From the IMG/VR virus record IMGVR_UViG_2728369181_000005: a stretch of 55,128 nt of DNA, one strand, 5' to 3'. This document shows, piece after piece, positions 21,615 through 49,800 of the stretch; within the stretch, counting starts at the first letter, position 1; each line of letters opens with the position of its first letter. This DNA is from a virus. Taxonomy: Duplodnaviria; Heunggongvirae; Uroviricota; Caudoviricetes. Made by a program: the position numbers and the translations under genes. Under the pieces are notes generated by a model, which did no database searches, had not been told where the DNA came from, and worked only from the letters and a program-made list of their open reading frames with translations.

Positions 21615-21640
<26 letters not shown>
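21095..21640 (+). CDS. nu1: Terminase small subunit Nu1
   Basis: 181 aa near-identical to lambda Nu1 (MEVNKKQLADIFGASIRTIQNWQEQGMPVLRGGGKGNEV...). Confidence 0.97.
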
Positions 21641-25332
<3,692 letters not shown>

Positions 25333-25352
<20 letters not shown>

Positions 25353-26650
25353 TCTCCCGCATATTGCCAGCATGGCCTTTAATGAGCCGCTGATGCTTGA
25401 ACCCGCCTATGCGCGGGTTTTCTTTTGTGCGCTTGCAGGCCAGCTTGGGATCAGCCGCCTGACGGATGCGGTGTCCGGCGACAGCCTGACTGCCCAGGAG
25501 GCACCCGCGACGCTGGCATTATCCGGTGATGATGACGGACCACGACAGGCCCGCAGTTATCAGGTCATGAACGGCATCGCCGTGCTGCCGGTGTCCGGCA
25601 CGCTGGTCAGCCGGACGCGGGCGCTGCAGCCGTACTCGGGGATGACCGGTTACAACGGCATTATCGCCCGTCTGCAACAGGCTGCCAGCGACCCGATGGT
25701 GGACGGCATTCTGCTCGATATGGACACACCGGGCGGAATGGTGGCGGGAGCATTTGACTGCGCTGACATCATCGCCCGTGTGCGTGACATAAAGCCGGTA
25801 TGGGCGCTGGCCAACGACATGAACTGCAGTGCAGGTCAGCTGCTTGCCAGTGCCGCCTCCCGACGTCTGGTCACGCAGACCGCCCGGACAGGCTCCATCG
25901 GCGTCATGATGGCTCACAGTAATTACGGCGCTGCGCTGGAGAAACAGGGCGTGGAAATCACGCTGATTTACAGCGGCAGCCATAAGGTGGATGGCAACCC
26001 CTACAGCCATCTACCGGATGATGTCCGGGAAACACTGCAGTCCCGGATGGATGCAACCCGCCGGATGTTTGCACAGAAGGTGTCGGCATATACCGGCCTG
26101 TCCGTGCAGGCTGTGCTGGATACCGAGGCTGCAGTGTACCGCGGTCAGGAGGCCATTAATGCCGGACTGGCTGATGAACTTGTTAACAGCACCGATGCGA
26201 TCACCGTCATGCGTGATGCGCTGGATGCACGTAAATCCCGTCTCTCAGGAGGGCGAATGACCAAAGAGACTCAATCAACAACTGTTTCAGCCACTGCTTT
26301 GCAGGCTGACGTTACTGACGTGGTGCCAGCGACGGAGGGTGAAAACGCCAGCGCGGCGCAGCCGGACGTGAACGCGCAGATCACCGCAGCGGTTGCGGCA
26401 GAAAACAGCCGCATTATGGGGATCCTCAACTGTGAGGAGGCTCACGGACGCGAAGAACAGGCTCGCGTGCTGGCAGAAACTCCCGGTATGACCGTGGAAA
26501 CGGCCCGNNNNNNNNNNNNNNNNNNNNNNNNNNNNNNNNNNNNNNNNGTGACACTGCGCTGGATCGTCTGATGCAGGGGGCACCGGCACCGCTGGCTGCA
26601 GGTAACCCGGCATCTGATGCCGTTAACGATTTGCTGAACACACCAGTGTA
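25333..26650 (+). CDS. C: Head protease/scaffold protein C (Nu3 nested in frame)
   Basis: GTG start at 25333 (VTAELRNLPHIASMAF...) as in lambda C; N-run 26508-26547 inside; true stop TAA 26648-26650. Confidence 0.9.
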
Positions 26651-27048: not shown

Positions 27049-27293
27049 ATGTCGATGTTCACAACCGCCCAGCTGCTGGCGGCAAATGAGCAGAAATTTA
27101 AGTTTGATCCGCTGTTTCTGCGTCTCTTTTTCCGTGAAAGCTATCCCTTCACCACGGAGAAAGTCTATCTCTCACAAATTCCGGGACTGGTAAACATGGC
27201 GCTGTACGTTTCGCCGATTGTTTCCGGTGAGGTTATCCGCTCCCGTGGCGGCTCTACCTCCGAATTTACGCCGGGATATGTCAAGCCGAAGCA
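27049..27293 (+). pseudogene. E: Major capsid protein E, N-terminal fragment (gene split by island insertion)
   Basis: MSMFTTAQLLAANEQKFKFD...GYVKPKH matches the lambda gpE N-terminus, then reads into island DNA and stops at 27324. Confidence 0.9.
27284..27293. repeat. Left copy of 10-bp insertion core AGCCGAAGCA (attL core)
   Basis: Identical 10-mer at 38017-38026; the flanking bases differ, and joining the outer flanks restores a continuous E reading frame (VKPKHEVN). Confidence 0.8.
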
Positions 27294-27402
27294 CTTAGCA
27301 TGGCTTTCTGAGGCTTTCGTGTAGTTGCTGGTTTTTACACTTAATCTTTTGATAATAAAGAGTAAGTTTATCTGGCGCTTTCACTGGATTTTCCTCGTTA
27401 TC

Positions 27403-27441
27403 TGTGTGTTGCAATCATCTCTGTATTGCAGCTTGTATTGC
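27403..27441. repeat. TGT(A/G)TTGCA direct repeats at island left end (candidate integrase arm sites)
   Basis: TGTGTTGCAA, TGTATTGCAG, TGTATTGC within 39 bp just upstream of the island int start; same motif at 37920-37940. Confidence 0.5.
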
Positions 27442-27456
27442 TTTTTGGGGCTAAAA

Positions 27457-28692
27457 ATGGCTGGCGAGAACAAACTGAGCGACAAAGCACTTAAAGGATA
27501 TCTGGGGAAACCTAGAGAAAAGCAGATCACCATTGCTGATGGAAAGGGGCTTTCTATTCGTGTGAGTACCAAGGGGGCTGTGAGCTTTGTTTTCTTCTAC
27601 AGGTTAGCAGGTGGCCGGGCTGCTCCGGTCTGGCTAACGTTGGGTAAATATCCTGATATGTCACTCAAACAGGCAAGGGAAAAGCGCGACGAGTGCCGTG
27701 GTTGGTTGGCTGACAAACGTGATCCGCGTATTCAGATTAAGATTCAGGCTGAAGAACGCTTAAAGCCGGTCACAGTGGAGGATGCACTAAATTACTGGTA
27801 TGAAAATTACTGTAAGGTGCGTCGTAAAACTCATGCTGTAACGCTTGGCAGATTTCGAAAGCATATCTTTCCCTATATCGGTCATTTGCCCGTAAATGAC
27901 ACTCACCTATATGAATGGCTGGACTGTTTTGACCGAATTAAACGTAATGCACCAGTTATGGCGGCGTATGTTTTTTCTGACACTAAATTAGCTCTTCGTT
28001 TTTGTCGGGTACGCCAGTACGCGACGTGTGATGCTTTAAAGGATTTGCGCATGAGTGATGTGGGGCAGATTGCAGGTAAGCGGGATCGGGTTCTGGATGA
28101 AGCCGAACTGGGCCAGCTCTGGAAGGCAATTTTTGTCGAGCCTGATTTAAAACTAATGTCTGAATACACGCGAAAAATGTTTGTGCTTTGTACAGTATTT
28201 GGATGTCGAATGAGTGAAGCCCGATTATCAGAATGGAGCGAATGGGATCTAGAAAGTTGGGTTTGGACTGTACCGAAAGATCACTCAAAAACTGGTGTTG
28301 AAATTGTCAGGCCAGTACCTGAAATTCTACGGCAGTGGGTAACGGATGTTCACGAAGAGACAAAACATACTGGTTATGTGCTGGGAAGTCTGCGAATTAG
28401 AGAAAGCGTAAGCAAGATTGGGGGGAAAATCGGTAAACGTTTGGGCCATGAAAAACAATGGTCACTACACGACCTTAGAAGAACGCTATCTACTCATCTA
28501 AGTGATCTCGGTGTTGAATTTTATGTAGTAGAACAACTGTTAGGCCATGCGCTACCTGGCGTGGCAGGTGTTTACAACCGGAGTAAGTTTATGGCTAAAA
28601 AACTGGATGCTCTGGAACTCTGGACTACATATCTCAATAGCATCGCAGCTGCTGATTCAAAAGTGACAATCCTCAAACAAAAGGCTGGTTAG
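27457..28692 (+). CDS. int: Tyrosine integrase (P4-like family) of the island
   Basis: Start MAGENKLSDKALKGYLGKP...; C-terminal catalytic region with HDLRRT...LGH...Y; first gene at island left end. Confidence 0.88.
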   Translation: MAGENKLSDKALKGYLGKPREKQITIADGKGLSIRVSTKGAVSFVFFYRLAGGRAAPVWLTLGKYPDMSLKQAREKRDECRGWLADKRDPRIQIKIQAEERLKPVTVEDALNYWYENYCKVRRKTHAVTLGRFRKHIFPYIGHLPVNDTHLYEWLDCFDRIKRNAPVMAAYVFSDTKLALRFCRVRQYATCDALKDLRMSDVGQIAGKRDRVLDEAELGQLWKAIFVEPDLKLMSEYTRKMFVLCTVFGCRMSEARLSEWSEWDLESWVWTVPKDHSKTGVEIVRPVPEILRQWVTDVHEETKHTGYVLGSLRIRESVSKIGGKIGKRLGHEKQWSLHDLRRTLSTHLSDLGVEFYVVEQLLGHALPGVAGVYNRSKFMAKKLDALELWTTYLNSIAAADSKVTILKQKAG

Positions 28693-28693
28693 C

Positions 28694-28915
28694 ATGAAAA
28701 AAATGGCAATTGTTGATAAAAAGGGGCTGGAGTACATTCCTAACATTGACCGAATGATCCGTGAGAAAGAATGTCGGGAGCTAACCACTCTTGCGAACAG
28801 CACACGCTGGAAGCTTGAAAAGGAGGGGAAATTCCCCAAGCGAATCAAAATCGGATCTACGGCGGTGGCTTATAGACTCTCTGAGATTCAAGCTTGGATA
28901 AGAGGTGAATGGTAA
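28694..28915 (+). CDS. AlpA-family transcriptional regulator / excisionase-like
   Basis: 73 aa with AlpA-type HTH; directly follows the integrase. Confidence 0.7.
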   Translation: MKKMAIVDKKGLEYIPNIDRMIREKECRELTTLANSTRWKLEKEGKFPKRIKIGSTAVAYRLSEIQAWIRGEW

Positions 28916-28941
28916 GTTAGGGAGGTATTCCTCCCTATATC

Positions 28942-29625
28942 TTACAGGAAATTTTTTAAATCAGGGTTTTTTCCAAATGCGCTCTTATAATATACTGTTG
29001 CAATCTCGTTAAAAATAGTTTTTATATCATCGGTAACCACTATTGTTGCTACGCGCAAATCTTTTTGATATTCATTTAAATCTGGAGGGGTATAGTCCAA
29101 TAGCGTTGATTTATCCAAGATTAAATGTTCTAACATGGCATAGCGCTCAATCAATGTTTTATAAAAATGATATTGATTTTCACTGTTAGCATGTGCACAG
29201 TTTATTGCAAGTAAATACGTTATTTCATTATCTAGATGTGCACGGACAAGGCTTGTATAGGTTTTTTTACGATCTAGATCAAAGGGATGGTATCCAGCAT
29301 TTTCATCAATGAACTTCAATAGATGATATAATATTCTGAAGTAGCTTCCAAAAACAGCATCATGATTGTGCATCAGTGTATTAGTGTCTTTTAAAGAAAC
29401 CAATCCATTCATCATTTTATTAATTAACTCTGAGTAATTTGATTTTTTTCTAAGATCATTTAGAGCATTGTTATGTTGAGATAACATGAGAGAAAATGTT
29501 GATTCAAAAGATGATTGCTTTTTAGCAATTAATGCAACTAACACTGCTGTGCAAGTCCCGAGTGCCACGAAGAAATTTATAATGTTTGATGCAGTGAATA
29601 CAGCATCGTCAGGAGTTGGAGTCAT
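28942..29625 (-). CDS. Hypothetical AT-rich membrane-anchored protein (candidate accessory/defence gene)
   Basis: 227 aa; N-terminal hydrophobic helix FFVALGTCTAVLVALIA; very AT-rich; follows the small regulator at 29658-29852 on the same strand. Confidence 0.45.
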   Translation of the reverse strand: MTPTPDDAVFTASNIINFFVALGTCTAVLVALIAKKQSSFESTFSLMLSQHNNALNDLRKKSNYSELINKMMNGLVSLKDTNTLMHNHDAVFGSYFRILYHLLKFIDENAGYHPFDLDRKKTYTSLVRAHLDNEITYLLAINCAHANSENQYHFYKTLIERYAMLEHLILDKSTLLDYTPPDLNEYQKDLRVATIVVTDDIKTIFNEIATVYYKSAFGKNPDLKNFL

Positions 29626-29657
29626 TTGAATATCCTATTCAATAAAAATTAAAAAAA

Positions 29658-29852
29658 TTAGCCTTTAGGTTCTATACCTTTACGGCGAAGCTCAGCACGA
29701 ACTAATTCTTTAATCCAATTGGCCAAGCTCATTCCTTCCTGAGCTGCTGATTCAGCCATCTGTTCTTTGAGTTCAGGATTGATTCGGATCTGAAACGCAG
29801 GGGCTTTGCCGGCTCCTTTTGGCTGCTTATCTCTTTGAATTGTAGTTGACAT
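29658..29852 (-). CDS. Small ribbon-helix-helix-like DNA-binding protein
   Basis: 64 aa; FQIRINPELKEQMAESAAQEGMSLANWIKELV fits an RHH (Arc/CopG-like) pattern. Confidence 0.45.
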   Translation of the reverse strand: MSTTIQRDKQPKGAGKAPAFQIRINPELKEQMAESAAQEGMSLANWIKELVRAELRRKGIEPKG

Positions 29853-29988
29853 GTGTGTACCTATTGCTTAGCATCAGTGTTGAATAGGTACACACATTAA
29901 CATGATGTTATACCTATAAACAACGCCCTAGGGTGCTCGCAACACACCTAGGGCGTCTAACCACAAACCGTTAACTGGAGTAACGACT

Positions 29989-30354
29989 ATGGCTGGAACA
30001 CAGCATACCCAAACTCACCCTAAATTTATATACATCTTTCTGGCGCTACATCGCGATCGCATAGCAGATGGAGCAACTACGGTACATGTAGCCGCTGACA
30101 CGCTGGTTGATGCGCGCAAGATGGTTAAGGAGATGGGCTATACTGCGGCTTTCTGGAAAGGGCGGGAAGAAAACACGCTGTTTATTCAGAAATGTGAAAA
30201 CAATTTCATCTGGCGTTTTATCGCCCTGAGTACGGCACAACCGCGCGTGATTACCATCGAGGCCACCAGCGAACAGGAAGCCCGCCAGCAATCCCCAACT
30301 GGCTGCGTGATGATATTCGCCGCCCGTATTCGTCAGGAGGTGTGCCATGAATGA
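29989..30354 (+). CDS. Hypothetical protein (possibly Icd-like)
   Basis: 121-codon ORF at the start of the island rightward operon; Icd-like assignment is from memory and weak. Confidence 0.3.
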   Translation: MAGTQHTQTHPKFIYIFLALHRDRIADGATTVHVAADTLVDARKMVKEMGYTAAFWKGREENTLFIQKCENNFIWRFIALSTAQPRVITIEATSEQEARQQSPTGCVMIFAARIRQEVCHE

Positions 30355-30571
30355 TCTTTATTTTAAAGTGCTGACACATGCTGAAAACGCGCTCGTTTGT
30401 GGCAAAAATATGCGAGAAATCTTATCAACCTGGCTTGATGGGACAACAAATGCGGAACACGATGAACGGGATGCTAATTTAGCTGGAGCGTTAATTACGT
30501 TACTTGATCCTGTCATCAAAGAGTTGGATGAAGCTATAAAAATACACGACCAGAGCTATACCGGAGAATAA
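30347..30571 (+). CDS. Hypothetical protein
   Basis: 74-codon ORF overlapping neighbours. Confidence 0.35.
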   Translation: MNDLYFKVLTHAENALVCGKNMREILSTWLDGTTNAEHDERDANLAGALITLLDPVIKELDEAIKIHDQSYTGE

Positions 30572-30574
30572 AAA

Positions 30575-30862
30575 ATGAAAAATAAATTTTCTGGCTTTAT
30601 TGCCAGCGGTCAAACTCATTCAAAAATCAGCCTTGGGGATATTTTCAAAGACAGCTATGGCTATCGGGTAAAGATTATTTCGGTTGATGATCGTCGTGTC
30701 TCTTATTTGCGTGATGGTTATGATTTTGAATGTGTTATGCCGCGTCAGCAGTTCGAAAGAGATTTCATTCTGGTAAAAAATTGCAAGACAGATAATCAGA
30801 GGCGTGCCGCAGGCTATATCCGTAAAATTCGGGCAATGTTAGTTGCCGGAGGTAACAAATGA
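30575..30862 (+). CDS. Hypothetical protein
   Basis: 95-codon ORF; ATGA overlap with the primase gene. Confidence 0.35.
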   Translation: MKNKFSGFIASGQTHSKISLGDIFKDSYGYRVKIISVDDRRVSYLRDGYDFECVMPRQQFERDFILVKNCKTDNQRRAAGYIRKIRAMLVAGGNK

Positions 30863-32679
30863 AACGTGCTCCGAACTTAAAATACCAACCGCGCGACAAA
30901 ATGACGGAAGTCATCATTTTTGCTGGCAGTGATGCCTGGAGCCATGCAAAAGAATGGAATGAATGGGCAGGTAAGCATATTGCAGCAGATGATACACCAC
31001 CAGTCATTCTGGGTACGGAACAACTGGAAAACCTGGATGATATGCAAATTATCGATGAAGGCCGTCATTATGTGCGTGTTTATCGTGCCGGAAAGATTGC
31101 AGAGAAAAGTCTGACGAAGGTTGCGACATTACTTGCTATTGCAGGCGTAAAGGAAGCACGTTGTTACCGTAGCTTTGTTGATCGAGAGCCTGAAGACTGG
31201 ACTCCGCGCCTTGTCGGCCTAAAAGCTGAAGCGGAGCATGGGGAAAGTCTGGTGATTGAACTGCCAGTGAAGAAGGCAGAGCGCAAAAATGACGAGCGTG
31301 CTTCATCTTTGGCGTTGAATCAGATGGGGGCCAGCCAGCGCGGTGAAGTTCTCCTTGCACATTACGGCGGCGAACTGGCAATCAATGCCGACTCTGACAC
31401 CGTTCATCATTACAACGGCGTTGTATGGGAGCCGGTTCAGGATAAAGAGTTACAGCGTGCTATGGCGCAGATTTTCATTGATGCGGAGATCAGCTATTCG
31501 CAGAACGCTATTAAATCGGCGGTAGATACCATGAAGTTAAGTTTGCCTGTAATGGGGAATACAGCCCGTAACCTGATTGGATTCAGTAACGGGGTATTTG
31601 ATACCAGAACTGGTAATTTTCGGGAGCATAACAAAAACGACTGGTTGTTAATTGCCAGTGAATTACCTTTCAGCCCACCAGCAGAGGGGGAAACGCTGGC
31701 AACACATGCGCCGAATTTCTGGAAGTGGTTGCGCCGTTCGGTGGCTGATAATGACCGCAAGGCAGATCGCGTACTGGCGGCATTATTCATGGTGCTGGCG
31801 AACCGGTACGACTGGCAGTTATTCATTGAGGTAACAGGGCCGGGGGGAAGTGGTAAAAGTGTGATGGCGGAGATTTGCACCATGCTGGCGGGTAAGGCGA
31901 ATACAGTATCAGCAAGCATGAAGGCGCTGGAAGATGCAAGGGAACGTGCGTTAGTGGTTGGCTTTTCGCTGATTATCATGCCGGATATGACCCGCTACGC
32001 TGGTGATGGGGCAGGGATTAAGGCCATTACAGGCGGTGACAAGGTGGCAATTGACCCGAAACACAAAGCCCCCTATTCAACGCGTATTCCGGCAGTAGTG
32101 CTGGCGGTTAACAATAACGCCATGTCATTCAGTGACCGCAGCGGGGGGATCTCACGTCGTCGGGTGATATTCAATTTTTCGGAAGTTGTACCGGAGAACG
32201 AACGCGATTCGATGCTGGCGGAAAAAATAGAAGGTGAGCTGGCGGTAGTGATTCGCCATCTGCTTACACGGTTTGCTGATCAGGACGAAGCCAGACGCCT
32301 GTTATATGAGCAGCAGAAATCTGAAGAAGCACTGGCGATAAAGCGAGAGGGGGATTCGCTGGTGGACTTCTGCGGCTATCTCATGGCATCGGTAATGTGT
32401 GATGGCCTGTTAGTGGGTAATGCTGAAATTGTGCCATTCAGCCCACGCAGGTATCTCTATCATGCCTATCTGGCTTATATGAGGGCACATGGGTTTGGTA
32501 AACCTGTAACACTGACGCGCTTCGGTAAAGATATGCCGGGGGCAATGGCGGAATATGGCAGGGAGTATATGAAACGGAAAACGAAGCACGGTTTGCGTTC
32601 AAACGTGACACTGACGGAGGAATCAGAAGACTGGATGCCATCATGTGTATCGGTCACTAATGACGATAGCAAAAATTAA
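30859..32679 (+). CDS. Primase-helicase (P4 alpha-like replication protein)
   Basis: 606 aa; Walker A GPGGSGKS and Walker B-like FSLIIMPDM in the C-terminal half; followed by an iteron array. Confidence 0.85.
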   Translation: MKRAPNLKYQPRDKMTEVIIFAGSDAWSHAKEWNEWAGKHIAADDTPPVILGTEQLENLDDMQIIDEGRHYVRVYRAGKIAEKSLTKVATLLAIAGVKEARCYRSFVDREPEDWTPRLVGLKAEAEHGESLVIELPVKKAERKNDERASSLALNQMGASQRGEVLLAHYGGELAINADSDTVHHYNGVVWEPVQDKELQRAMAQIFIDAEISYSQNAIKSAVDTMKLSLPVMGNTARNLIGFSNGVFDTRTGNFREHNKNDWLLIASELPFSPPAEGETLATHAPNFWKWLRRSVADNDRKADRVLAALFMVLANRYDWQLFIEVTGPGGSGKSVMAEICTMLAGKANTVSASMKALEDARERALVVGFSLIIMPDMTRYAGDGAGIKAITGGDKVAIDPKHKAPYSTRIPAVVLAVNNNAMSFSDRSGGISRRRVIFNFSEVVPENERDSMLAEKIEGELAVVIRHLLTRFADQDEARRLLYEQQKSEEALAIKREGDSLVDFCGYLMASVMCDGLLVGNAEIVPFSPRRYLYHAYLAYMRAHGFGKPVTLTRFGKDMPGAMAEYGREYMKRKTKHGLRSNVTLTEESEDWMPSCVSVTNDDSKN

Positions 32680-32690
32680 ACTTATGGAAT

Positions 32691-32916
32691 AACTGTTCAC
32701 CACTGTTCACCCTGTCATAAATATCTTTTATATCAGTATATTATAGGGTGAACAGTTATTTATGAACTGTTCACCAAACTATTCACTGTTCACCTTTTTG
32801 ATTGTTTATTGAGCTTCAAGGGTGAACAGTGGTGAACAGTTGGTGAATAGTTTTTGTGAAACTGTTCACCCATTAACATTATGAATTAAAAGAGAAAATA
32901 TCAAAAGGTGAACAGG
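32691..32916. repeat. Island replication-origin iterons
   Basis: About ten copies of ACTGTTCACC / GGTGAACAGT in both orientations immediately after the primase stop. Confidence 0.8.
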
Positions 32917-32966
32917 TGAAGGGTTAAAACGCAAAAATTTTAATTTACTGCTGTGAGATAAAGCCT

Positions 32967-33212
32967 ATGACAGCGAAGCACACAAAAAAATCACAATCGC
33001 ACGCCCTTGATTTGACGGAACACTGGTTAAGGGTGTCGATAAAAATCATCGACCGCAACGCCGGGGAAGGATACGCGAAAGCACATCCCGAACTGATTAG
33101 CGCATTCATGACAACGGCGGCTGCAAACTTTGCCACTCTGACCGAACGGGAGATTGCTGAAGCGGAGGAAGTGACAACAATCAATATTAAGTCCGGAGAG
33201 CAGGCAGCATGA
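32967..33212 (+). CDS. Hypothetical protein
   Basis: 81-codon ORF after the iteron array. Confidence 0.35.
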   Translation: MTAKHTKKSQSHALDLTEHWLRVSIKIIDRNAGEGYAKAHPELISAFMTTAAANFATLTEREIAEAEEVTTINIKSGEQAA

Positions 33213-33658
33213 CGGCGCAAATATCAGTTTACGGGCGGTTGGTGGACGACCCGCAGACAAAACAGACCAGCAAGGGCACCCCCATGACGCTGGCGCGTAT
33301 GGCGGTATCACTGCCCTGCAGTCAGTCGGATGACGGTCAGGCGACGATGTGGTTATCTGTCCTGGCGTTTGGCAGACAAGCCGACGCACTGGCAAAGCAT
33401 CACAAAGGCGAACTCCTGAGCGTGGCGGGTAACATGCAGATGAGCCAGTGGACTGGACAGAACGGCGAAACGCGGCAGGGCTGGCAGGTTATCGCAGACA
33501 GCGTAATCAGTGCGCGATCGGTGCGACCGGGCGGCAAAAAAGGCCAACAGGGGCAGGCTACTGACGCACTGAACAGAGCAAAACAACAGGCAGATCAGCA
33601 AGGAAGCCAGCCACCAGTGGGAGATAATGAGCAATGGGGAGATGATATCCCGTTTTAA
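33209..33658 (+). CDS. Single-stranded DNA-binding protein (SSB-like)
   Basis: N-terminal OB-fold pattern ISVYGRLVDDP...ARMAVSL...WLSVLAFG; Gln/Gly-rich tail ending DDIPF. Confidence 0.7.
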   Translation: MTAQISVYGRLVDDPQTKQTSKGTPMTLARMAVSLPCSQSDDGQATMWLSVLAFGRQADALAKHHKGELLSVAGNMQMSQWTGQNGETRQGWQVIADSVISARSVRPGGKKGQQGQATDALNRAKQQADQQGSQPPVGDNEQWGDDIPF

Positions 33659-33875
33659 ATATTGCCAATAAAAAAAGGCCGGAAAAAATAAATTTTCCGG
33701 CATGCTACATAAATCCCGACCAAAGGGAGTGAAGATATTAACACTAATTGTCCGCACTGAAGTTGTCACCCCAAAACTTTATACAACATTGCACTTGGTT
33801 GCATGTGTTCGCATGACAAATATCGGTGGTAGCATATATCCACAATTATTTTTAATGAATGCAAAGAGGATGCGT

Positions 33876-34916
33876 ATGGTTGATTTATATTCGCCTACTC
33901 AGCTTGTACAGGTGGTTAATGCTGTAGATGTACAAAAACAACTAAATGCGTTGTTTACCAGTTTGTTTTTTACTCGCTCGGTAATGTTTGAATCGCGCGA
34001 TATTATTCTTGATACAATCGACGATCCAAATATCCCAATTGCAGCGTTTTGTTCTCCTATGGTGGGTAGTAAAGTTTCACGTGACGAAGGGTACGAATCA
34101 AAAACAATTCGTCCAGGCTATATGAAGCCGAAAAGCAGCATTGATCCAAATAAGTTAGCTGTGCGCCCTGCTGGTGTATCACCTGAGCAATACAATGCTT
34201 TTGGGGCGCGTAATATTAAAGTTAAACAGGCGATTGTAAATCAAGCTAAAGCTATTCGTGCACGTATTGAATGGCTTGCTGTTCAGGCAATCACAACGGG
34301 GAAAAATATCATTGAGGGCGATGGTATTGAACGTTATGAGCTGGACTGGAATATTAAACCACAAAATATCATCACTCAGTCTGGCGGTGCTGAGTGGTCA
34401 GGTAAGGATAAAGAAACTTTTGATCCAAATGATTATATTGAGAGCTACGCAGAATTTAGTGAGGGCGTCACTAATATTATCATTATGGGCGGTAATGTAT
34501 GGAAGAAATACCGTTCATTCAGAGCAATAAAAGAGGCTCTGGATACCCGTCGTGGTTCTAATTCCGAACTGGAAACGGCCCTTAAAGACCTTGGTGATTC
34601 GGTGAGTTTTAAAGGGTATATGGGCGATGTTGCGATTGTTGTTTACAGCGGGCGTTATACCGACGAGGACGGAACAGAAAAACATTTCCTTGATCCTGAT
34701 TTGATGGTGCTTGGCAATACGGCTCTTCAGGGGATTGTCGCCTATGGCGGTGTTCAGGATCCGGAGCTAATCCGAATGGGGCTGACTAAAGCCGAACTTG
34801 CACCGAAAAACTATATTGTGCCTGGTGATCCGGCTATTGAATATGTGCAGACACATTCAGCACCACAGCCAATACCGGCCCGCATCAATCGTTTTGTTAC
34901 CGTTCGCATTGGCTAA
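33876..34916 (+). CDS. Island-encoded major capsid protein (lambda gpE-like)
   Basis: AAGAGGA SD before ATG 33876; aligns with lambda E (GYMKPK vs GYVKPK; ITQSGGAEWSGKDKETFDPNDYIESYA; DTRRGSNSELETA; GDVAIVVYSG). Confidence 0.8.
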   Translation: MVDLYSPTQLVQVVNAVDVQKQLNALFTSLFFTRSVMFESRDIILDTIDDPNIPIAAFCSPMVGSKVSRDEGYESKTIRPGYMKPKSSIDPNKLAVRPAGVSPEQYNAFGARNIKVKQAIVNQAKAIRARIEWLAVQAITTGKNIIEGDGIERYELDWNIKPQNIITQSGGAEWSGKDKETFDPNDYIESYAEFSEGVTNIIIMGGNVWKKYRSFRAIKEALDTRRGSNSELETALKDLGDSVSFKGYMGDVAIVVYSGRYTDEDGTEKHFLDPDLMVLGNTALQGIVAYGGVQDPELIRMGLTKAELAPKNYIVPGDPAIEYVQTHSAPQPIPARINRFVTVRIG

Positions 34917-34925
34917 GGGGGAGCA

Positions 34926-35267
34926 ATGGCTACTCATTACACTGAACTCATGGCTGGCACTGAAGCACTGGTGACTACGCTGGGGATATTTTCAGCTAAT
35001 AAAGGGGTAATTCCTGCATTTACGCCACTGATGCAGGAAGATGCAACAGGTGCACTGGTGGTATGGGATGGTTCGAGCGTAGGTAAAGCGGTTTATGTTT
35101 CCGCTGTACAAATCGACACCGCGAAAAAAACACAGGCTCAGGTCTATAAGACAGGTGTCTTAAATGTTGATGCTCTGAACTGGCCTGAGTCTGTTAAAGA
35201 ACTGTCAGTAAAGGTTGCAGCGTTTGTTGGCTCAGGTATTTCTGTTCAGCCGCTGGCTCGTGTGTAA
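34926..35267 (+). CDS. Island-encoded decoration protein (lambda gpD-like)
   Basis: 113 aa; LVVWDGSSVGKAV parallels lambda [14 protein letters not shown]; same length class. Confidence 0.6.
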   Translation: MATHYTELMAGTEALVTTLGIFSANKGVIPAFTPLMQEDATGALVVWDGSSVGKAVYVSAVQIDTAKKTQAQVYKTGVLNVDALNWPESVKELSVKVAAFVGSGISVQPLARV

Positions 35268-35278
35268 AGGGGGATACA

Positions 35279-35662
35279 ATGCAGAATGATTACAATGACC
35301 TTAAGCCAATTGCCGAAATGATGTACCCGAATCCAGCTGTAGAGGAATTAAAAGCTATCGCTGACAAAATGTGTTTAAGCGAGCGCCTTGTTGATATGAA
35401 TCAGGTGATGGAAATTACAACCCTGAGTCGTCGTACACTGCTAAACCTTGAGGCTAGTGGAGAGTTCCCGGAGCGTGTGCAGGTTACGGAAGGGCGTAAG
35501 GCCTGGTATTTAAGTGAAGTGATCGACTGGATAAATAATATTCCTCGCGCTTCTGAATATTGCCGCGTACCTGTCCCAAAAAAGCCAGATGCGGCGCTAT
35601 GCCTCAAGATTGAGCGTGTACGCCGCAATGCACGGGATGGTCGCTATAAGCTGATTGGTTGA
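35279..35662 (+). CDS. AlpA-type HTH domain protein (possible packaging/regulatory factor)
   Basis: 127 aa; C-terminal half carries an AlpA-like HTH (MNQVMEITTLSRRTLLNLEASGEFPERV). Confidence 0.5.
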   Translation: MQNDYNDLKPIAEMMYPNPAVEELKAIADKMCLSERLVDMNQVMEITTLSRRTLLNLEASGEFPERVQVTEGRKAWYLSEVIDWINNIPRASEYCRVPVPKKPDAALCLKIERVRRNARDGRYKLIG

Positions 35663-35689
35663 TGAAATTAGGGCCCGCTCTGGCTGGCG

Positions 35690-35770
35690 GGTCCTTTCCG
35701 GTGATCCAGAACGTTACGGGGCGTCAGGCGCGCGGGTTTTCGCTATTTATGAGCATTTTAAGGGGACTGG
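35690..35770. other. Island cos-like site with divergent cosN core (35718-35729)
   Basis: GGTCCTTTCCGGTGATCCAGAACGTTACG|GGGCGTCAGGCG|CGCGGGTTTTCGCTATTTATGA: flanks match the prophage cos, the 12-nt core differs at about five positions. Confidence 0.7.
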
Positions 35771-35878
35771 TGGTGGTTTTGTTGTTCGCTATATCTGTAT
35801 GAATAATAAGAGAAAAATACAATCAATACACCAACCTGAAACAGTAATTAAGTTGTGGTATCAATGAAATTACACCTG

Positions 35879-36406
35879 ATGAACAAAAAAAACATGGCAA
35901 AAAGTTGCCGTGTAAGCGCCACTGCGTTCGATAAGTGGGGAGTGATTCCCGTCGAGCGTAAGGGCCGTGAGGCGTTCTATGATGTTGCCAGTGTAATAGA
36001 TAATCGGGTTAACAATGCAATCAGCCAGATTACAAACGAAACGGGCGATATTGATGACGATGAACTTTTACGCGTCAGGATCAGATTACTGACAGCACAG
36101 GCAGAGGCGCAGGAGCTTAAAAACGAGCGCGAACGCGGCGACGTTATTGATACAGAGTTTTGTATGTATGTTCTTTCCAAACTGGCGAGTCAGATTTCAT
36201 CTATCATGGACAGCCTGCCGCTTACCATGCAAAGGCGCTTCCCACAGATGACTCCGGCTATGCTGGATGGACTTAAAAAGGAAGTGGCTAAAGCCTGTAA
36301 TGCCAGTGCCGGCGTTGCTGACAACCTCCCACAGATACTGGCTGATTATCTGATGGAAAGTACAGGAAACGTACCGGATAAGTTGCAGCTGAATAAGGAT
36401 AAGTAA
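35879..36406 (+). CDS. Island small terminase (Nu1-like, diverged)
   Basis: Aligns with lambda Nu1 (VIPVERKGREAFYDV vs MPVLRGGGKGNEVLYD; AQAEAQELKNERERGDVIDTEFC vs AQADAQELKNARDSAEVVETAFC); start codon choice (35864/35879/35894) uncertain. Confidence 0.7.
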   Translation: MNKKNMAKSCRVSATAFDKWGVIPVERKGREAFYDVASVIDNRVNNAISQITNETGDIDDDELLRVRIRLLTAQAEAQELKNERERGDVIDTEFCMYVLSKLASQISSIMDSLPLTMQRRFPQMTPAMLDGLKKEVAKACNASAGVADNLPQILADYLMESTGNVPDKLQLNKDK

Positions 36407-36417
36407 CGTAGTACGCT

Positions 36418-36693
36418 ATGACTGAATCCGAACTACTGAAAGTAATCTGCCATGCTGGTGGAGTCAGCCACCAGCATGACGAACAGGCCACGCAGCCGGG
36501 CAGTGTCACCGCTGAAAATTACGCTCGTGTGGTTGCTGAGGTTATGTGGCGTGACGGTATAGAACTGAACGGACAGGATTGCTTAGTCATCCGCACCAAA
36601 GTGCTGGCTATACTGGCAGCTAGGCGGAGGCAGGGACAACGCCAGAACGTTGCATCGTACCAGTGGAAGAAGCCTGACAGACTGCGGCGATAA
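36418..36693 (+). CDS. Hypothetical protein
   Basis: 91-codon ORF following the TerS-like gene. Confidence 0.35.
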   Translation: MTESELLKVICHAGGVSHQHDEQATQPGSVTAENYARVVAEVMWRDGIELNGQDCLVIRTKVLAILAARRRQGQRQNVASYQWKKPDRLRR

Positions 36694-37095
36694 CTCTTTG
36701 ATTTTCTCGACGGCCCCAAAATGGGCCTTACCATAGCCAGCTAATAAATGAGCAAGCCTCAAAAGTGAGGTTTGTGGCCGTTTGGCCTATTCATATGCTA
36801 ACTCGTTGATATTCCTGACGACGCAAATTTACGCCTTGTGGCTGGTAGTCGAATTGCAAATTTGCAACTCGACTATGAAACTACAGGTAGTTTGGGTAGT
36901 AAAAGCAACACACTGATTTTGGGGCTTCTTCGCGATACCTAATATTATGGTATCGGTGGAAGAGATATCGTTTCTCATAGGTTAGCACCGAGGGCGGAGT
37001 TCCGCCCTCATCGAAAAATTGCTTACGAGTCGTCAAAATAAATTAATCGACTGAGTATAATGATTAACTAATTGCTCGTGTTACTTCATTATACG

Positions 37096-37857
37096 TTATT
37101 TCCCATCTTTAAGGTTTAACCAAGTGTTAATTAAAAAAAGAGCCATTGAGCCTGATAAATTTACTGCAAGTTCGGCATGCCTTGGGGATGGCTTAATTGA
37201 TGAGCTGTTCGTTCCATGTGCATCACCGAGTTTATTACGAAGAGTACCTAACCCATTTACAACTGCAGAACAACCGCCGAGAATTTGTTTGAAGATATTT
37301 TCAGTATGTTGGTCGGCAGATAGGTTAAGTTCTTTTGAAAGAGTTTTATAAAGCTCTGACATTTCAATATTTTTATTATTATACTGAATGCCCATATCAT
37401 CAAGAATGTGTTTGCAAACTGTTTCAAGAAGTGTTCTTGCGGAGGTTATCGCACCATCCGGATCTGTATGGCGCCGTTCAAGTGCTTTTATCCAAACGGC
37501 GTGGACTCCATCCTCGTTAAACTTTCTTAATACATCAGATATGTCTTCATCCGCTGGAGCTTTATTTTTCCCTTCTAGATAGTCCAGCATCGGCTGAAAT
37601 GCCTTATAAATCAAATCTCTCCGGGGGGCATACTTTTCAGTCTTTTTTATAAATCCCCAAAATTCTTTTAGTGAGCGATTAGTTCTCACAAACTCTGGTA
37701 ATAGCTGATGTAAAGGAGGATTTTGTAAGAAATATGTTCTTAGAAGCAAATAATCATTATTAGCTTCATCCTGGGCTCCTGTAGCTCTTGCAATTAGTAT
37801 GTTTTGAAGCGCTACTGCGCGCTCTAGGTCATTTTGAAGGGTATCTATAATATTCAT
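37096..37857 (-). CDS. Abortive-infection-like protein (Abi_C/HEPN-type motif)
   Basis: 253 aa, AT-rich, opposite strand at the island right end; C-terminal GTLRNKLGDAHG (R-x6-H) matches the Abi_C/HEPN signature as recalled. Confidence 0.6.
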   Translation of the reverse strand: MNIIDTLQNDLERAVALQNILIARATGAQDEANNDYLLLRTYFLQNPPLHQLLPEFVRTNRSLKEFWGFIKKTEKYAPRRDLIYKAFQPMLDYLEGKNKAPADEDISDVLRKFNEDGVHAVWIKALERRHTDPDGAITSARTLLETVCKHILDDMGIQYNNKNIEMSELYKTLSKELNLSADQHTENIFKQILGGCSAVVNGLGTLRNKLGDAHGTNSSSIKPSPRHAELAVNLSGSMALFLINTWLNLKDGK

Positions 37858-37919
37858 AACAAATCTTTATTCACTTCATTTGTGGGTTGATAATTGAATG
37901 GTTTGTACATTGATTTCTG

Positions 37920-37940
37920 TGTATTGCAGTGTGTATTGCA
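37920..37940. repeat. TGTATTGCA direct repeats at island right end
   Basis: TGTATTGCAG and TGTATTGCA, same orientation as the left-end copies. Confidence 0.5.
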
Positions 37941-38016
37941 ACATAGCCATTCAGGTAGAGATTATGCTCTATTTTTCCTCTTATATCATTCACATACTTA
38001 CACCATTGACTCATGT

Positions 38017-38026
38017 AGCCGAAGCA
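38017..38026. repeat. Right copy of 10-bp insertion core AGCCGAAGCA (attR core)
   Basis: Identical to 27284-27293. Confidence 0.8.
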
Positions 38027-42193: not shown

Positions 42194-44776
42194 ACCGGTA
42201 GGCGATCTGGTCGTTGATTTGAGTCTGGATGCGGCCAGATTTGACGAGCAGATGGCCAGAGTCAGGCGTCATTTTTCCGGTACGGAAAGTGATGCGAAAA
42301 AAACAGCGGCAGTCGTTGAACAGTCGCTGAGCCGACAGGCGCTGGCTGCACAGAAAGCGGGGATTTCCGTCGGGCAGTATAAAGCCGCCATGCGTATGCT
42401 GCCTGCACAGTTCACCGACGTGGCCACGCAGCTTGCAGGCGGGCAAAGTCCGTGGCTGATCCTGCTGCAACAGGGTGGTCAGGTTAAGGACTCCTTCGGC
42501 GGGATGATCCCCATGTTCCGGGGGCTTGCCGGTGCGATCACCCTGCCGATGGTGGGGGCCACCTCGCTGGCGGTGGCGACCGGTGCGCTGGCGTATGCCT
42601 GGTATCAGGGCAACTCAACCCTGTCCGATTTCAACAAAACGCTGGTCCTTTCCGGCAATCAGGCGGGACTGACGGCAGATCGTATGCTGGTCCTGTCCAG
42701 AGCCGGGCAGGCGGCAGGGCTGACGTTTAACCAGACCAGCGAGTCACTCAGCGCACTGGTCAAGGCGGGGGTAAGCGGTGAGGCTCAGATTGCGTCCATC
42801 AGCCAGAGTGTGGCGCGTTTCTCCTCTGTATCCGGCGTGGAGGTGGACAAGGTCGCTGAAGCCTTCGGGAAGCTGACCACAGACCCGACGTCGGGGCTGA
42901 CGGCGATGGCACGCCAGTTCCATAACGTGACGGCGGAGCAGATTGCGTATGTTGCTCAGTTGCAGCGTTCCGGCGATGAAGCCGGGGCATTGCAGGCGGC
43001 GAACGAGGCCGCAACGAAGGGGTTTGATGACCAGACCCGCCGCCTGAAAGAGAACATGGGCACGCTGGAGACCTGGGCAGAGAGGACAGCGCGGGCATTC
43101 AAATCCATGTGGGATGCGGTGCTGGATATTGGTCGTCCTGATACCGCGCAGGAGATGCTGATTAAGGCAGAGGCTGCGTTTAAGAAAGCAGACGACATCT
43201 GGAATCTGCGCAAGGATGATTATTTTGTTAACGATGAAGCGCGGGCGCGTTACTGGGATGATCGTGAAAAGGCCCGTCTTGCGCTTGAAGCCGCCCGAAA
43301 GAAGGCTGAGCAGCAGACTCAACAGGACAAAAATGCGCAGCAGCAGAGCGATACCGAAGCGTCACGGCTGAAATATACCGAAGAGGCGCAGAAGGCTTAC
43401 GAACGGCTGCAGACGCCGCTGGAGAAATATACCGCCCGTCAGGAAGAACTGAACAAGGCACTGAAAGACGGGAAAATCCTGCAGGCGGATTACAACACGC
43501 TGATGGCGGCGGCGAAAAAGGATTATGAAGCGACGCTGAAAAAGCCGAAACAGTCCGGCGTGAAGGTGTCTGCGGGCGATCGTCAGGAAGACAGTGCTCA
43601 TGCTGCCCTGCTGACGCTTCAGGCAGAACTCCGGACGCTGGAGAAGCATGCCGGAGCGAATGAGAAAATCAGCCAGCAGCGCCGGGATTTGTGGAAGGCG
43701 GAGAGTCAGTTCGCGGTACTGGAGGAGGCGGCGCAACGTCGCCAGCTGTCTGCACAGGAGAAATCCCTGCTGGCGCATAAAGATGAGACGCTGGAGTACA
43801 AACGCCAGCTGGCTGCACTTGGCGACAAGGTCACCTATCAGGAGCGCCTGAACGCGCTGGCGCAGCAGGCGGATAAATTCGCACAGCAGCAACAGGCAAA
43901 ACGGGCCGCCATTGATGCGAAAAGCCGGGGGCTGACTGACCGGCAGGCAGAACGGGAAGCCACGGAACAGCGCCTGAAGGAACAGTATGGCGATAATCCG
44001 CTGGCGCTGAATAACGTCATGTCAGAGCAGAAAAAGACCTGGGCGGCTGAAGACCAGCTTCGCGGGAGCTGGATGGCAGGCCTGAAGTCCGGCTGGAGTG
44101 AGTGGGAAGAGAGCGCCACGGACAGTATGTCGCAGGTTAAAAGTGCAGCCACGCAGACCTTTGATGGTATTGCACAGAATATGGCGGCGATGCTGACCGG
44201 CAGTGAGCAGAACTGGCGCAGCTTCACCCGTTCCGTACTGTCCATGATGACAGAAATTCTGCTTAAGCAGGCAATGGTGGGGATTGTCGGGAGTATCGGC
44301 AGCGCCATTGGCGGGGCTGTTGGTGGCGGCGCATCCGCGTCAGGCGGAACAGCCATTCAGGCAACTGCGGCGNNNNNNNNNNNNNNNNNNNNNNNNNNNN
44401 NNNNNNNNNNTTTGCGACCGGGGGATTTACGGGAACCGGCGGCAAATATGAGCCAGCGGGGATTGTTCACCGTGGTGAGTTTGTCTTCACGAAGGAGGCA
44501 ACCAGCCGGATTGGCGTGGGGAATCTCTACCGGCTGATGCGCGGCTATGCCACCGGTGGTTATGTCGGTACACCGGGCAGTCTGGCTGACAGCCGGTCGC
44601 AGGCGTCCGGGACGTTTGAGCAGAATAACCATGTGGTGATTAACAACGACGGCACGAACGGGCAGATAGGTCCGGCTGCTCTGAAGGCGGTGTATGACAT
44701 GGCCCGCAAGGGTGCCCGTGATGAAATTCAGACACAGATGCGTGATGGTGGCCTGTTCTCCGGAGGTGGACGATGA
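42186..44776 (+). CDS. H: Tape measure protein H (interrupted by an assembly gap)
   Basis: Long coiled-coil protein matching lambda gpH; N-run 44373-44410 breaks the apparent frame; C-terminus continues to 44776. Confidence 0.9.
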
Positions 44777-46814: not shown

Positions 46815-49800
46815 ATCCTCCGGCTCCGAGACGGTGCTGGGTACGGAAGTGAAATATGACACGCCGATCACCCGGACCATCACGTCGGCAAACATCGACC
46901 GTCTGCGCTTTACCTTCGGTGTACAGGCACTGGNNNNNNNNNNNNNNNNNNNNNNNNNNNNNNNNNNNNNNNNNNNNNNNNNNNNNNNNNNNNNNNNAGA
47001 CAGGAATCCGTCGGAAGTTCGCCTGCTGGTTCAGATACAGCGTAACGGTGGCTGGGTGACGGAAAAAGACATCACCATTAAGGGCAAAACCACCTCGCAG
47101 TATCTGGCCTCGGTGGTGGTGGATAACCTGCCGCCGCGCCCGTTTAATATCCGGATGCGCAGGATGACGCCGGACAGCACCACAGACCAGCTGCTGAACA
47201 AAACGCTCTGGTCGTCATACACCGAAATCATCGATGTGAAACAGTGCTACCCGAACACGGCACTGGTTGGCGTGCAGGTGGACTCGGAGCAGTTCGGCAG
47301 CCAGCAGGTGAGCCGTAATTATCATCTTCGCGGGCGCATTCTGCAGGTGCCGTCGAACTATAACCCGCAGACGCGGCAATACAGCGGTATCTGGGACGGA
47401 ACGTTAAAACCGGCATACAGCAACAACATGGCCTGGTGTCTGTGGGATATGCTGACCCATCCGCGCTACGGCATGGGGAAACGTCTTGGTGCGGCGGATG
47501 TGGATAAATGGGCGCTGTATGTCATCGGCCAGTACTGCGACCAGTCGGTGCCGGACGGCTTTGGCGGCACGGAGCCGCGCATTACCTGTAATGCGTACCT
47601 GACCACACAGCGCAAGGCGTGGGATGTGCTCAGTGATTTCTGCTCGGCGATGCGCTGTATGCCGGTATGGAACGGGCAGACGCTGACGTTCGTGCAGGAC
47701 CGACCATCAGATAAGGTGTGGACCTATAACCGCAGTAATGTGGTGATGCCGGATGATGGCGCGCCGTTCCGCTACAGCTTCAGCGCCCTGAAGGACCGCC
47801 ATAATGCCGTTGAGGTGAACTGGATTGACCCGGATAACGGCTGGGAGACGGCGACAGAGCTCGTGGAGGATACGCAGGCCATTGCCCGTTACGGCCGTAA
47901 CGTCACGAAGATGGATGCCTTTGGCTGTACCAGCCGGGGGCAGGCACACCGCGCCGGGCTGTGGCTGATTAAAACGGAGCTGCTGGAAACGCAGACCGTG
48001 GACTTCAGCGTGGGTGCTGAAGGGCTTCGCCATGTACCGGGGGATGTCATTGAAATCTGCGATGATGACTATGCCGGTATCAGCACCGGTGGTCGTGTGC
48101 TGGCGGTGAACAGCCAGACCCGGACGCTGACGCTCGACCGTGAAATCACGCTGCCATCCTCCGGTACCACGCTGATAAGCCTGGTTGACGGAAGTGGCAA
48201 TCCGGTCAGCGTGGAGGTTCAGTCCGTCACCGACGGCGTGAAGGTGAAAGTGAGCCGTGTTCCTGACGGTGTTGCTGAATACAGCGTATGGGGGCTGAAG
48301 CTGCCGACGCTGCGCCAGCGACTGTTCCGCTGCGTGAGTATCCGTGAAAACGACGACGGCACGTATGCCATCACCGCCGTGCAGCATGTGCCGGAAAAAG
48401 AGACCATCGTGGATAACGGGGCGCACTTTGACGGCGAACAGAGTGGCACGGTGAATGGTGTCACGCCGCCCGCGGTGCAGCACCTGACCGCAGAAGTCAC
48501 CGCAGACAGCGGGGAATATCAGGTGCTGGCGCGATGGGACACACCGAAGGTGGTGAAGGGGGTGAGCTTTATGCTTCGCCTGACCGTGGCAGCGGATGAC
48601 GGCAGTGAGCGGCTGGTCAGCACGGCCAGGACGACGGAAACCACATACCGCTTCAGGCAACTGGCGCTGGGGAACTACAGGCTGACAGTCCGGGCGGTAA
48701 ATGCGTGGGGGCAGCAGGGGGATCCGGCGTCGGTATCGTTCCGGATTGCCGCACCGGCAGCGCCATCGCGGATTGAGCTGACGCCGGGCTATTTTCAGAT
48801 AACCGCCACGCCGCATCTTGCCGTTTATGATCCGACGGTACAGTTTGAGTTCTGGTTCTCGGAAAAGCGGATTGCGGATATCAGGCAGGTTGAAGCCAGC
48901 GCGCGTTATCTTGGTACGGCGCTGTACTGGATAGCCGCCAGTATCAATATCAAACCGGGCCATGATTATTATTTTTACATTCGCAGTGTGAACACCGTTG
49001 GCAAATCGGCATTTGTGGAGGCTGTTGGCCAGCCGAGTGATGATGCATCCGGCTATCTGGATTTTTTCAAAGGAGAGATAGGGAAAACCCATCTGGCTCA
49101 GGAGTTGTGGACGCAGATTGATAACGGTCAGCTTGCGCCTGACCTGGCTGAAATCAGGACGTCCATTACGGATGTCAGCAATGAAATCACGCAGACCGTC
49201 AATAAGAAACTGGAAGACCAGAGTGCAGCGATCCAGCAGATACAGAAGGTTCAGGTTGATACAAATAATAACCTGAACAGCATGTGGGCTGTGAAGCTGC
49301 AGCAGATGCAGGACGGACGCCTTTATATCGCGGGTATTGGTGCCGGTATTGAGAATACCCCTGACGGTATGCAGAGTCAGGTGCTGCTGGCGGCGGACAG
49401 GATTGCGATGATTAATCCTGCGAATGGCAATACAAAGCCGATGTTTGTTGGGCAGGGCGATCAGATATTCATGAACGAAGTGTTCCTGAAATATCTGACG
49501 GCTCCCACCATTACCAGCGGTGGCAATCCCCCAACGTTTTCACTGACACCTGATGGTCGACTTTCTGCGAGAAATGCGGATATCAGCGGTAACGTGAATG
49601 CGAACTCCGGGACGCTCAATAATGTCACGATTAACCAGAACTGTCGGATTCTGGGAAAACTGTCAGCTAACCAGATTGAAGGTGATATTGTCAAAACGGT
49701 GGGAAAAGCCTTTCCGAGAAATGGCAGTTATGCCAGCGGTACAATAACGGTCACTGTGTACGATGACCAGGCTTTTGACCGTCAGATAGTCGTCCCCCCC

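Follow-up and report, generated by a model that had tools for sequence, protein, structure and literature searches.

The closest described relative of the locus analysed here is 11capE (Tommasini, Mageeney and Williams 2023, PMC10111431), a satellite of ~11 kb that encodes an integrase of the P4-like clade, occupies a site in a lambda-like gene E with a 10-bp identity block, and carries its genes in the order int, alpA, primase, and homologues of the capsid and decoration proteins. Its packaging is covered in a single sentence, which states that it 'lacks terS' and that a stretch of 258 bp matches the helper cos at 90% identity (PMC10111431). Such a match implies that the published 11capE has a cosB of the lambda type. 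Excision and replication were seen by these authors in NRG857c, and virions were not detected (PMC10111431). Our literature search returned no later paper on HE-PICI packaging, and no demonstration that such islands are packaged was found in the literature searched.

The cos sites of EcCICFT073-type PICIs (Fillol-Salom 2018, 2019; Murialdo and Feiss 2022) have a lambda-like cosQ and cosN joined to a different cosB, and lie just upstream of the satellite gene for Rpp (139-154 aa), a protein that alters which cosB the helper terminase uses. In published PICI cos sites, cosN is nearly identical to that of lambda. Phage N15 (Feiss et al. 2015, PMC4669245) has a simple cosB with a G/T-rich R3-type element ~50-60 bp from cosN and no exact IHF consensus, and its cohesive end is naturally variable in the right half. 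As a complete phage, it encodes a TerL of its own, and the C-terminus of its small terminase, gp1, is 76% identical to that of Nu1. The lambda-N15hy4 hybrid showed that the lambda TerL can be driven by a TerS whose DNA-binding domain is that of N15 (PMC4669245). In Gram-positive PICIs, the SaPI TerS proteins are satellite small terminases that serve the satellite's own packaging site together with the helper large terminase; these systems use pac sites and headful packaging, and their TerS proteins form an unrelated family. In Gram-negative PICIs, terS homologues are known at the level of annotation (PMC6092414, PMC10085698), and there is apparently no experimental study of a cos-type, Nu1-like satellite TerS in the literature searched.

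Here, we describe a second lambda-type cos in a 55,128-nt stretch of viral DNA (IMG/VR record IMGVR_UViG_2728369181_000005; referred to as the window), in which a capE-type island interrupts a prophage. The island resembles 11capE in integrase clade, insertion site, identity block, gene order, size and position of cos, but differs in carrying a Nu1-family terS and a non-lambda cosB; the variant cohesive-end core that it also carries goes unmentioned in the 11capE paper. With the EcCICFT073 type it shares a lambda-like cosQ and cosN, a different cosB, and a position just upstream of a gene proposed here to alter the cosB used by the helper terminase. However, the encoded protein is a full-length, 180-aa Nu1-family TerS rather than an Rpp, and the island cosN differs from the canonical one at 5 of the 12 core positions. 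The likeness to N15 lies in the DNA-binding domain of TerS and in the general layout of cosB, while the C-terminus of TerS (32-34% identity) and the R element itself (GGTGGTGGTTTTGTTGTT in the island, GAGGTTGTTGTT in N15) are unlike. The division of labour proposed here is that of the SaPI TerS proteins, although in a cos system with defined 12-nt ends. New with respect to the literature are the presence of terS, the existence of three alternative capE packaging modules, and the unusually variable right half of cosN and cosQ-cosN spacer. The first of these corrects the published description of capE islands, which were said to be without terS. The three interchangeable modules form a natural series on how cos-type satellites take over a lambda-type terminase without Rpp, and the cohesive-end variation gives population-scale support to a functional asymmetry of cosN that Feiss inferred from few phages. 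Furthermore, lambda-based delivery systems, whether cosmid or PICI, could use the cos-terS pair as an orthogonal packaging signal.

The embedded island and its cos site

The island is a helper-embedded PICI of the capE type, matching 11capE (PMC10111431), and spans 10,733 bp (27284-38026, + strand) within the prophage gene E. A 10-bp direct repeat, AGCCGAAGCA, bounds it at 27284-27293 and 38017-38026, and the major capsid gene is interrupted after ...PGYVKPKH, with the split at 27324/38031. The assignment follows from an integrase gene next to attL in gene E, a short att block and co-oriented genes in the PICI order. Encoded are a P4-like integrase, AlpA, two Abi-type proteins, a primase, an SSB, an E-like capsid protein, a D-like decoration protein and a second AlpA-like protein, after which come the cos site, the gene for the 180-aa Nu1-family protein and a 91-aa ORF. 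At least 80% of the island is present in ~40 complete Escherichia coli genomes, and in both copies inspected (L001 and L002) it lies within gene E and keeps the cos-terS arrangement. The island of the composite lysogens AST216 and SCU-101 is 99.6% identical to the one described here.

The window contains two lambda-type cos sites, the prophage cos (20876-21094, + strand) and a second one in the island (35689-35863, + strand). The helper site consists of cosQ (20876-20882), the canonical core GGGCGGCGACCT (20906-20917, its single occurrence in the window) and a lambda-type cosB, as judged from sequence and alignment, and it lies upstream of the helper terminase genes nu1 (21095-21640) and A (21615-23551), which were identified by ORF and family matches (21095-23551, + strand). 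At the island site the sequence reads GTTACG-GGGCGTCAGGCG-CGCGGG, with the core at 35719-35730 and mismatches to the helper core at positions 6, 8, 9, 10 and 12. The 22-mer to the right of the core, CGCGGGTTTTCGCTATTTATGA, has exactly two copies in the window (20918-20939 and 35731-35752) and none in 100 shuffles. To the left, the cosQ-like sequence GGGTCCTTTCC is found at 35689-35699 in the island, where 16 nt separate it from the ACG before the core, and at 20876-20886 in the helper; at both sites it starts exactly 30 bp 5′ of the first cohesive-end base (20876 versus 20906 in the helper). Aligned with each other, the two sites have ~75 bp in common, from cosQ to just past the 22-mer (~35759), beyond which, in cosB, the likeness is lost.

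The sequence-only reading of this DNA had already pointed to a second cos-like site with helper-like flanks and a different core, and both the 22/22 match of the right flank and the core GGGCGTCAGGCG bear this out. It had also claimed that the downstream region differs, which agrees with the loss of likeness past ~35759, and that the site precedes the island Nu1-like gene much as the helper cos precedes nu1, which holds as well (145 bp upstream in the island, 189 bp in the helper). Its description needs adjusting in extent and position: the flank match is real and longer than it had stated, reaching from cosQ to ~35759, and the core, which it had placed at 35718-35729, is the right site shifted by one base.

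The heptamer GGGTCCT at the start of the island site (35689-35695, + strand) does not vary among 18 near-identical islands and is kept by 90% or more of the 50 unique cos sequences of the island type; we take it to be cosQ by comparison with lambda cosQ (bp 48473-48479). It is followed by a cosQ-cosN spacer, GGTGATCCAGAACGTT in the window (35700-35715, + strand), which is hypervariable among these 18 islands. By sequence and alignment, cosN covers 35717-35732 (+ strand), comprising the core and its flanking CG dinucleotides, and by analogy with lambda the nicks would fall at 35718/35719 on the top strand and at 35730/35731 on the bottom strand. The right flank, corresponding to the lambda I2 region (35731-35752, + strand), is 22/22 identical to the helper and hardly varies among islands (diversity 0.005). 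Across 81 related sites, the pattern ACG-GGGCG.......-CGCGG is kept, with the predicted nicks 12 bp apart; relative to lambda, bp 6 is changed from G to T at the island site.

A hairpin with a 10-bp stem (AGGGCCCGCU...GGCGGGUCCU) can be drawn at 35670-35695, directly past the AlpA-like gene, and its 3′ arm includes the cosQ heptamer. The fold shows no excess over shuffled sequence (z = -1.24), and only UUUCC follows the stem. A scan of 35200-36800 around terS found no sigma-70-like promoter, so that expression of the island terS would depend on read-through.

The small terminase and cosB of the island

The gene immediately downstream of the island cos (35864-36406, + strand) encodes a 180-aa protein, assigned to the Nu1 family by Pfam, PHROG, BLASTP and domain-wise identities. 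It matches Pfam Phage_Nu1 (PF07471, 1e-24) and PHROG 57 'terminase small subunit' (9e-53, residues 2-174), so that family membership extends over the full length, and it is 36% identical to the helper Nu1 over its full length (BLASTP 4e-34). Its best phage relative is N15 gp1 (47% identity), and the identical CDS of L001 (100%) is WP_000766228.1, a RefSeq 'terminase small subunit'. No NCBIfam match was obtained for any TerS, and phmmer returned no PDB match to the island TerS at E up to 1. The relationship differs between domains: the DNA-binding domain is 40% identical to the helper Nu1 and 59% to N15 gp1, with a recognition helix (TAFDKWGV versus QAFDKWGV in N15) identical at 7 of 8 positions, the central domain is 52% identical to either protein, and the last 35 residues are 32% identical to Nu1 and 34% to N15 gp1. 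Proteins at least 82% identical to the island TerS were found only in contexts without a large terminase, and this TerS clade is restricted to satellites in the sample. None of the 80 related loci has a disrupted terS (82-100% identity).

The region between cosN and terS is unlike the R3-I1-R2-R1 array of the helper. By alignment and conservation profile (the profile built from 50 unique cos sequences upstream of TerS relatives), the lambda cosB is here replaced by another cosB (35753-35863, + strand), in which a conserved (GGT/GTT)n element takes the place of R3. This R3-like element, GGTGGTGGTTTTGTTGTT (cos bp 51-68; 35769-35786, + strand), is at least 90% conserved in the 50 unique sequences. 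A second conserved block, ACACCAACCTGAA (cos bp 110-122; 35828-35840, + strand), emerged from the same profile and may be a second, inverted R-like element. A pattern scan of 35753-35863 found no exact IHF consensus, a likeness to the simple cosB of N15.

In lambda, R3 occupies bp 50-65, and the island element lies at a distance from cosN like that of the R3 elements of lambda and N15. Block mutations mapped the N15 R3 to bp 48-59, GAGGTTGTTGTT (PMC4669245), and the motif GTTGTT stands at bp 63-68 in the island versus bp 54-59 in N15, so the two do not superpose exactly. A related motif, GAGGTGGTGGTTGTTGTTTT, occupies the R3 position in L076, a phage that encodes an N15-like TerS along with a TerL of its own. 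We had considered whether this GAGGTGGTGGTTGTTGTTTT type of cosB (L024 and L076) belongs to Rpp-type PICIs, and rejected it on the ORFs, which are those of a phage with an N15-like TerS and a 643-aa TerL. Throughout the examined cases, the type of cosB tracks the type of TerS DNA-binding domain, lambda with lambda in L331 and N15-like with N15-like at the 81 sites. We infer the R3-like element to be the candidate binding site of the island TerS.

What such a pair might do can be read against the N15 work, in which the terminases of lambda and 21 fail to package cosB-N15 DNA, and a chimeric TerS combining the N15 DNA-binding domain with the lambda C-terminus works with the lambda TerL (PMC4669245). 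By analogy, initiation at the island cos would be expected of the island TerS but not of the helper Nu1. Following induction of the helper and excision of the island, the island TerS would bind the island cosB and position the helper TerL (gpA) on cosN, where TerL would introduce nicks staggered by 12 bp. Concatemers of the island would then be packaged into helper-derived heads, with four copies (42.9 kb) filling a head of lambda size, and termination would proceed via cosQ and cosN at a downstream island cos. Helper Nu1 would not initiate at this cos, and initiation is thus probably private to the island. In sequence, the site retains everything required by a lambda-type large terminase to nick and to terminate, namely cosQ at -30, the CG dinucleotides, bp 1-5, C11 and the 22-bp flank. 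Cutting by a lambda-type TerL is plausible, with conservation extending to cosQ, its spacing, the bases on either side of the nicks, bp 1-5 and C11, and the nicking enzyme is probably the helper TerL. The scheme as a whole, from binding of the island TerS to four copies per head, is the one we favour with moderate confidence, and with a similar degree of confidence we regard the site as the functional cos of a capE-type helper-embedded PICI, a satellite type that is already known.

One step in this scheme concerns the tail of TerS. The C-terminal end of lambda Nu1 binds TerL, and the island has no TerL of its own. In the alignable C-terminal region, 11 of 34 residues of the island TerS are identical to Nu1, and a 13-aa extension is present; this divergence makes direct recruitment of TerL by the island TerS uncertain. 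The chief rival to our reading, which we hold to be unlikely, starts from here: the island TerS would hetero-oligomerise with the helper Nu1 through the central domain without binding TerL itself, so that the island subunit reads the island cosB, the Nu1 subunit provides the TerL-binding tail, and the helper cos is blocked, resulting in interference. The contrast between a central domain 52% identical to Nu1 and an extreme C-terminus at only 32% would fit such redirection, and there is a precedent in the Rpp-TerS heterodimers of EcCICFT073 (PMC6739421, PMC9026076). It would also fit a second TerS type, from sister islands, that keeps lambda residues 1 to ~100 and diverges in its C-terminal half, meaning that a non-Nu1 C-terminus is recurrent in these satellite TerS proteins. 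However, the island TerS is a full-length, 180-aa member of the Nu1 family, against 139-154 aa for Rpp, and its C-terminal region can still be aligned with Nu1 across the whole length. When held against the RppC-TerS structure 6hn7, the Nu1-family profile matches the TerS chain (chain B) and misses the RppC chain. We accordingly class the island protein as a TerS and reject its identity as an Rpp, on profile and length alike.

In another alternative, the true helper is a different phage, a lambda-like one with a TerS and cosB of the N15 or Monarch type (for example of the L076 type), and the island cos and terS would be tuned to the TerL of that phage. The same viral contig collection does contain phages that combine an N15-like DNA-binding domain in TerS and a GGTGGTGGTTGTTGTTTT cosB with a TerL of their own, 65% identical to lambda A. 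Yet the C-terminus of the island TerS, taken as its last 35 residues, is no closer to the TerS of L076 (9/35 identical) than to Nu1 (11/34). Every embedded copy examined sits in lambda-type head genes (E or portal B), with a single copy, L394, not embedded, and embedding ties induction to the host prophage (PMC10111431). We therefore give this alternative little credence and retain the resident lambda-type prophage as the probable source of TerL.

Variation in the cohesive-end core

The 12-nt core is where the island and helper sites differ within cosN, and it varies widely among relatives. Over 81 island-type cos sites, the canonical core GGGCGGCGACCT is found 56 times, GGGCGTCAGGCG 12 times, GGGCGGAAGGCG and GGGCGGAGACCT 4 times each, GGGCGTCGACCT twice, and three further variants once each. 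Throughout these sites bp 1-5 and C11 are invariant, and the variation is confined to bp 6-10 and 12. Per-site diversity was calculated for 18 islands whose TerS proteins are 98-100% identical, and it is 0 in cosQ, 0.18 in the cosQ-cosN spacer, 0 in core bp 1-5, 0.29 in core bp 6-12, 0.005 in the 22-bp right flank, 0.014 in cosB and 0.009 in terS. The spacer and bp 6-12 (35700-35715 and 35724-35730; loci L126-L140) thus reach 20-30 times the diversity of neighbouring DNA, a level not accounted for by relaxed constraint alone. Whole spacer/core alleles are common to islands and helper-type cos sites, several alternative spacers occur alongside the same cosB and TerS, and one island (L136) carries a typical helper spacer and core. 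A candidate process behind this diversity is short-patch exchange among cos sites.

The variant core GGGCGTCAGGCG is not peculiar to islands. L306, a lambda-type prophage (Nu1 98% and TerL (A) 99% identical) with B, C, D and E intact and uninterrupted, has GGGCGTCAGGCG as the core of its own cos; the exact sequence also occurs in L226, a true phage case, and a one-base variant, GGGCGTCAGACG, in L305. Similarly, GGGCGGAAGGCG is the core of the phage YDC107_1's own cos and is found at 38 loci with a TerL ~99% identical to the helper type. Some islands with a 98-100% identical TerS and a near-identical cosB carry the canonical core or GGGCGGAAGGCG. Conversely, GGGCGTCAGGCG is the core of capE islands with a lambda-type cosB and without terS, where the missing terS means that helper Nu1 and A must cut it. 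We had counted sites combining a lambda cosB with GGGCGTCAGGCG as helper sites, and rejected this because most are the cos of such islands. In the genetics of Feiss et al., changes at cosN bp 7-12 are phenotypically silent or of minimal effect, and natural variation falls in the same half (PMC4669245); for the lambda TerL, cosN-lambda and cosN-N15 are equally good substrates (PMC4669245). Compared in this way, the core GGGCGTCAGGCG reads as one of several interchangeable natural alleles of a tolerant right half of cosN and not as a recognition determinant.

These observations bear on the proposal, made in the sequence-only reading, that the site is a private packaging signal with its own core. 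The part that stands, on homology and on published genetics of relatives, is cosB together with the island's own N15-like TerS. The part that falls is the different 12-nt core, since L306 uses it as its own, sister islands do with a canonical core, and the right half tolerates change at bp 7-12.

The core may still matter after packaging. With 5 of their 12 positions different, the cohesive ends of helper and island are not expected to anneal with one another; as few as two mismatches already lower the yield ~4-fold (PMC4669245), so that five out of 12 should prevent annealing. For a satellite that lies in cis to its helper this could be an advantage: hybrid molecules that start from the island cos of an unexcised composite and end at the helper cos would not cyclise, and helper and island ends would not join. 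Selection or cos-specific exchange would then keep the sticky ends of an embedded satellite non-complementary to those of its host prophage, an example of such exchange being the repair of mismatched annealed ends after heterologous termination. If true, hybrid helper-satellite molecules would be unable to cyclise. Besides the excess diversity at bp 6-12 (0.29 against ~0.01 in neighbouring DNA), composites in which both cos sites could be read speak for it, 19 pairs differing and 3 matching, and the difference goes in both directions, as L244 and L392 have a variant core in the helper and a canonical one in the island. These 19/3 counts are, however, not dereplicated or corrected for phylogeny and roughly what chance would give for lineage-specific alleles. 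L364, L383 and L393 are matched pairs, portal-embedded islands with a readable cos mostly carry the canonical core, and the variant cores are also seen in lambda-type prophages that harbour no island (L306, and many with GGGCGGAAGGCG). Canonical portal-embedded islands and matched pairs likewise weaken the idea that embedding as such selects a variant core. On these grounds an adaptive role for non-complementary ends seems improbable to us, and we keep to the reading of the core as a tolerated allele.

Packaging modules and neighbouring genes

Behind the same AlpA-like gene, capE islands carry one of three packaging modules: (a) a lambda-type cosB without terS, (b) a lambda-type cosB with a chimeric TerS (L331), or (c) an N15-like cosB with an N15-like TerS, as in the window. 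Six islands with a variant core (L327, L337, L343, L346, L387 and L391) belong to module (a) and have no terS of any type downstream; these are probably the islands of the published 11capE description. In L331 (19101-19870), the cos of the island combines the core GGGCGTCAGGCG with a complete cosB of the lambda type (R3-I1-R2-R1), and the gene for a 183-aa chimeric TerS follows. Over its first ~100 residues this protein is practically lambda Nu1 (84 of 85 aligned positions across the DNA-binding domain plus linker), and the C-terminal half has diverged, with 10 of 34 positions identical within the last 35 aa.

The capsid-D-alpA-cos-terS module of the window also recurs outside gene E. It is found in islands within the portal gene B of lambda-type prophages, in L392 (E. 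coli CFSAN018748) and L393 (20Y000092), and in a chromosomal PICI by a tRNA-Ile gene with a different integrase, L394 (PEC199). This distribution bears on whether the island cos and terS could be an inactive remnant, phage DNA captured along with late genes and with no present role. PICIs do capture late genes of their helpers, and the published composite gave no detectable virions (PMC10111431). Against it stand the conservation of the cos-terS module across islands with different integration sites, the strong conservation of cosQ, the nick flanks and the R3-like element, an intact terS in all 80 related loci, and the co-occurrence of cosB type and TerS DNA-binding-domain type in the cases examined. 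A remnant is, in our view, highly improbable, and a functional cos remains the preferred reading.

Several other genes of the island and prophage deserve mention. The conserved 91-aa ORF at 36418-36693 (PHROG 1561) is found behind the satellite terS, at 55-100% identity, in almost every one of the 80 related loci, and could be a member of a packaging or interference module. The E-like major capsid protein of the island is ~45% identical to the helper E and is encoded together with the D-like decoration protein at 33876-35267, while the island itself interrupts helper E. Abortive-infection-type genes lie near both island ends (28942-29625 and 37096-37857, both on the - strand) and encode putAbiC and Abi_C domains, and in L002 a TIR-domain gene stands in place of the left one, which suggests a satellite with variable slots for defence genes.

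In the helper, an apparent frameshift in gene A was rejected because it coincides with a run of masked N at 23001-23059. Further masked runs are found at 26508-26547 (which breaks gene C), 44373-44410, 46934-46997 and 49881-49984, and the breaks in genes A and C are thus not real lesions. Two 380-aa ORFs (1-1143 and 16167-17309) were considered as possible relatives of each other, and this was rejected on their starts, phage-integrase-like in one and porin-like in the other. The porin-like ORF (16167-17309, - strand) has a signal peptide, lies upstream of a putative lysis region and the prophage cos, and looks like a lysogenic-conversion (moron) gene.
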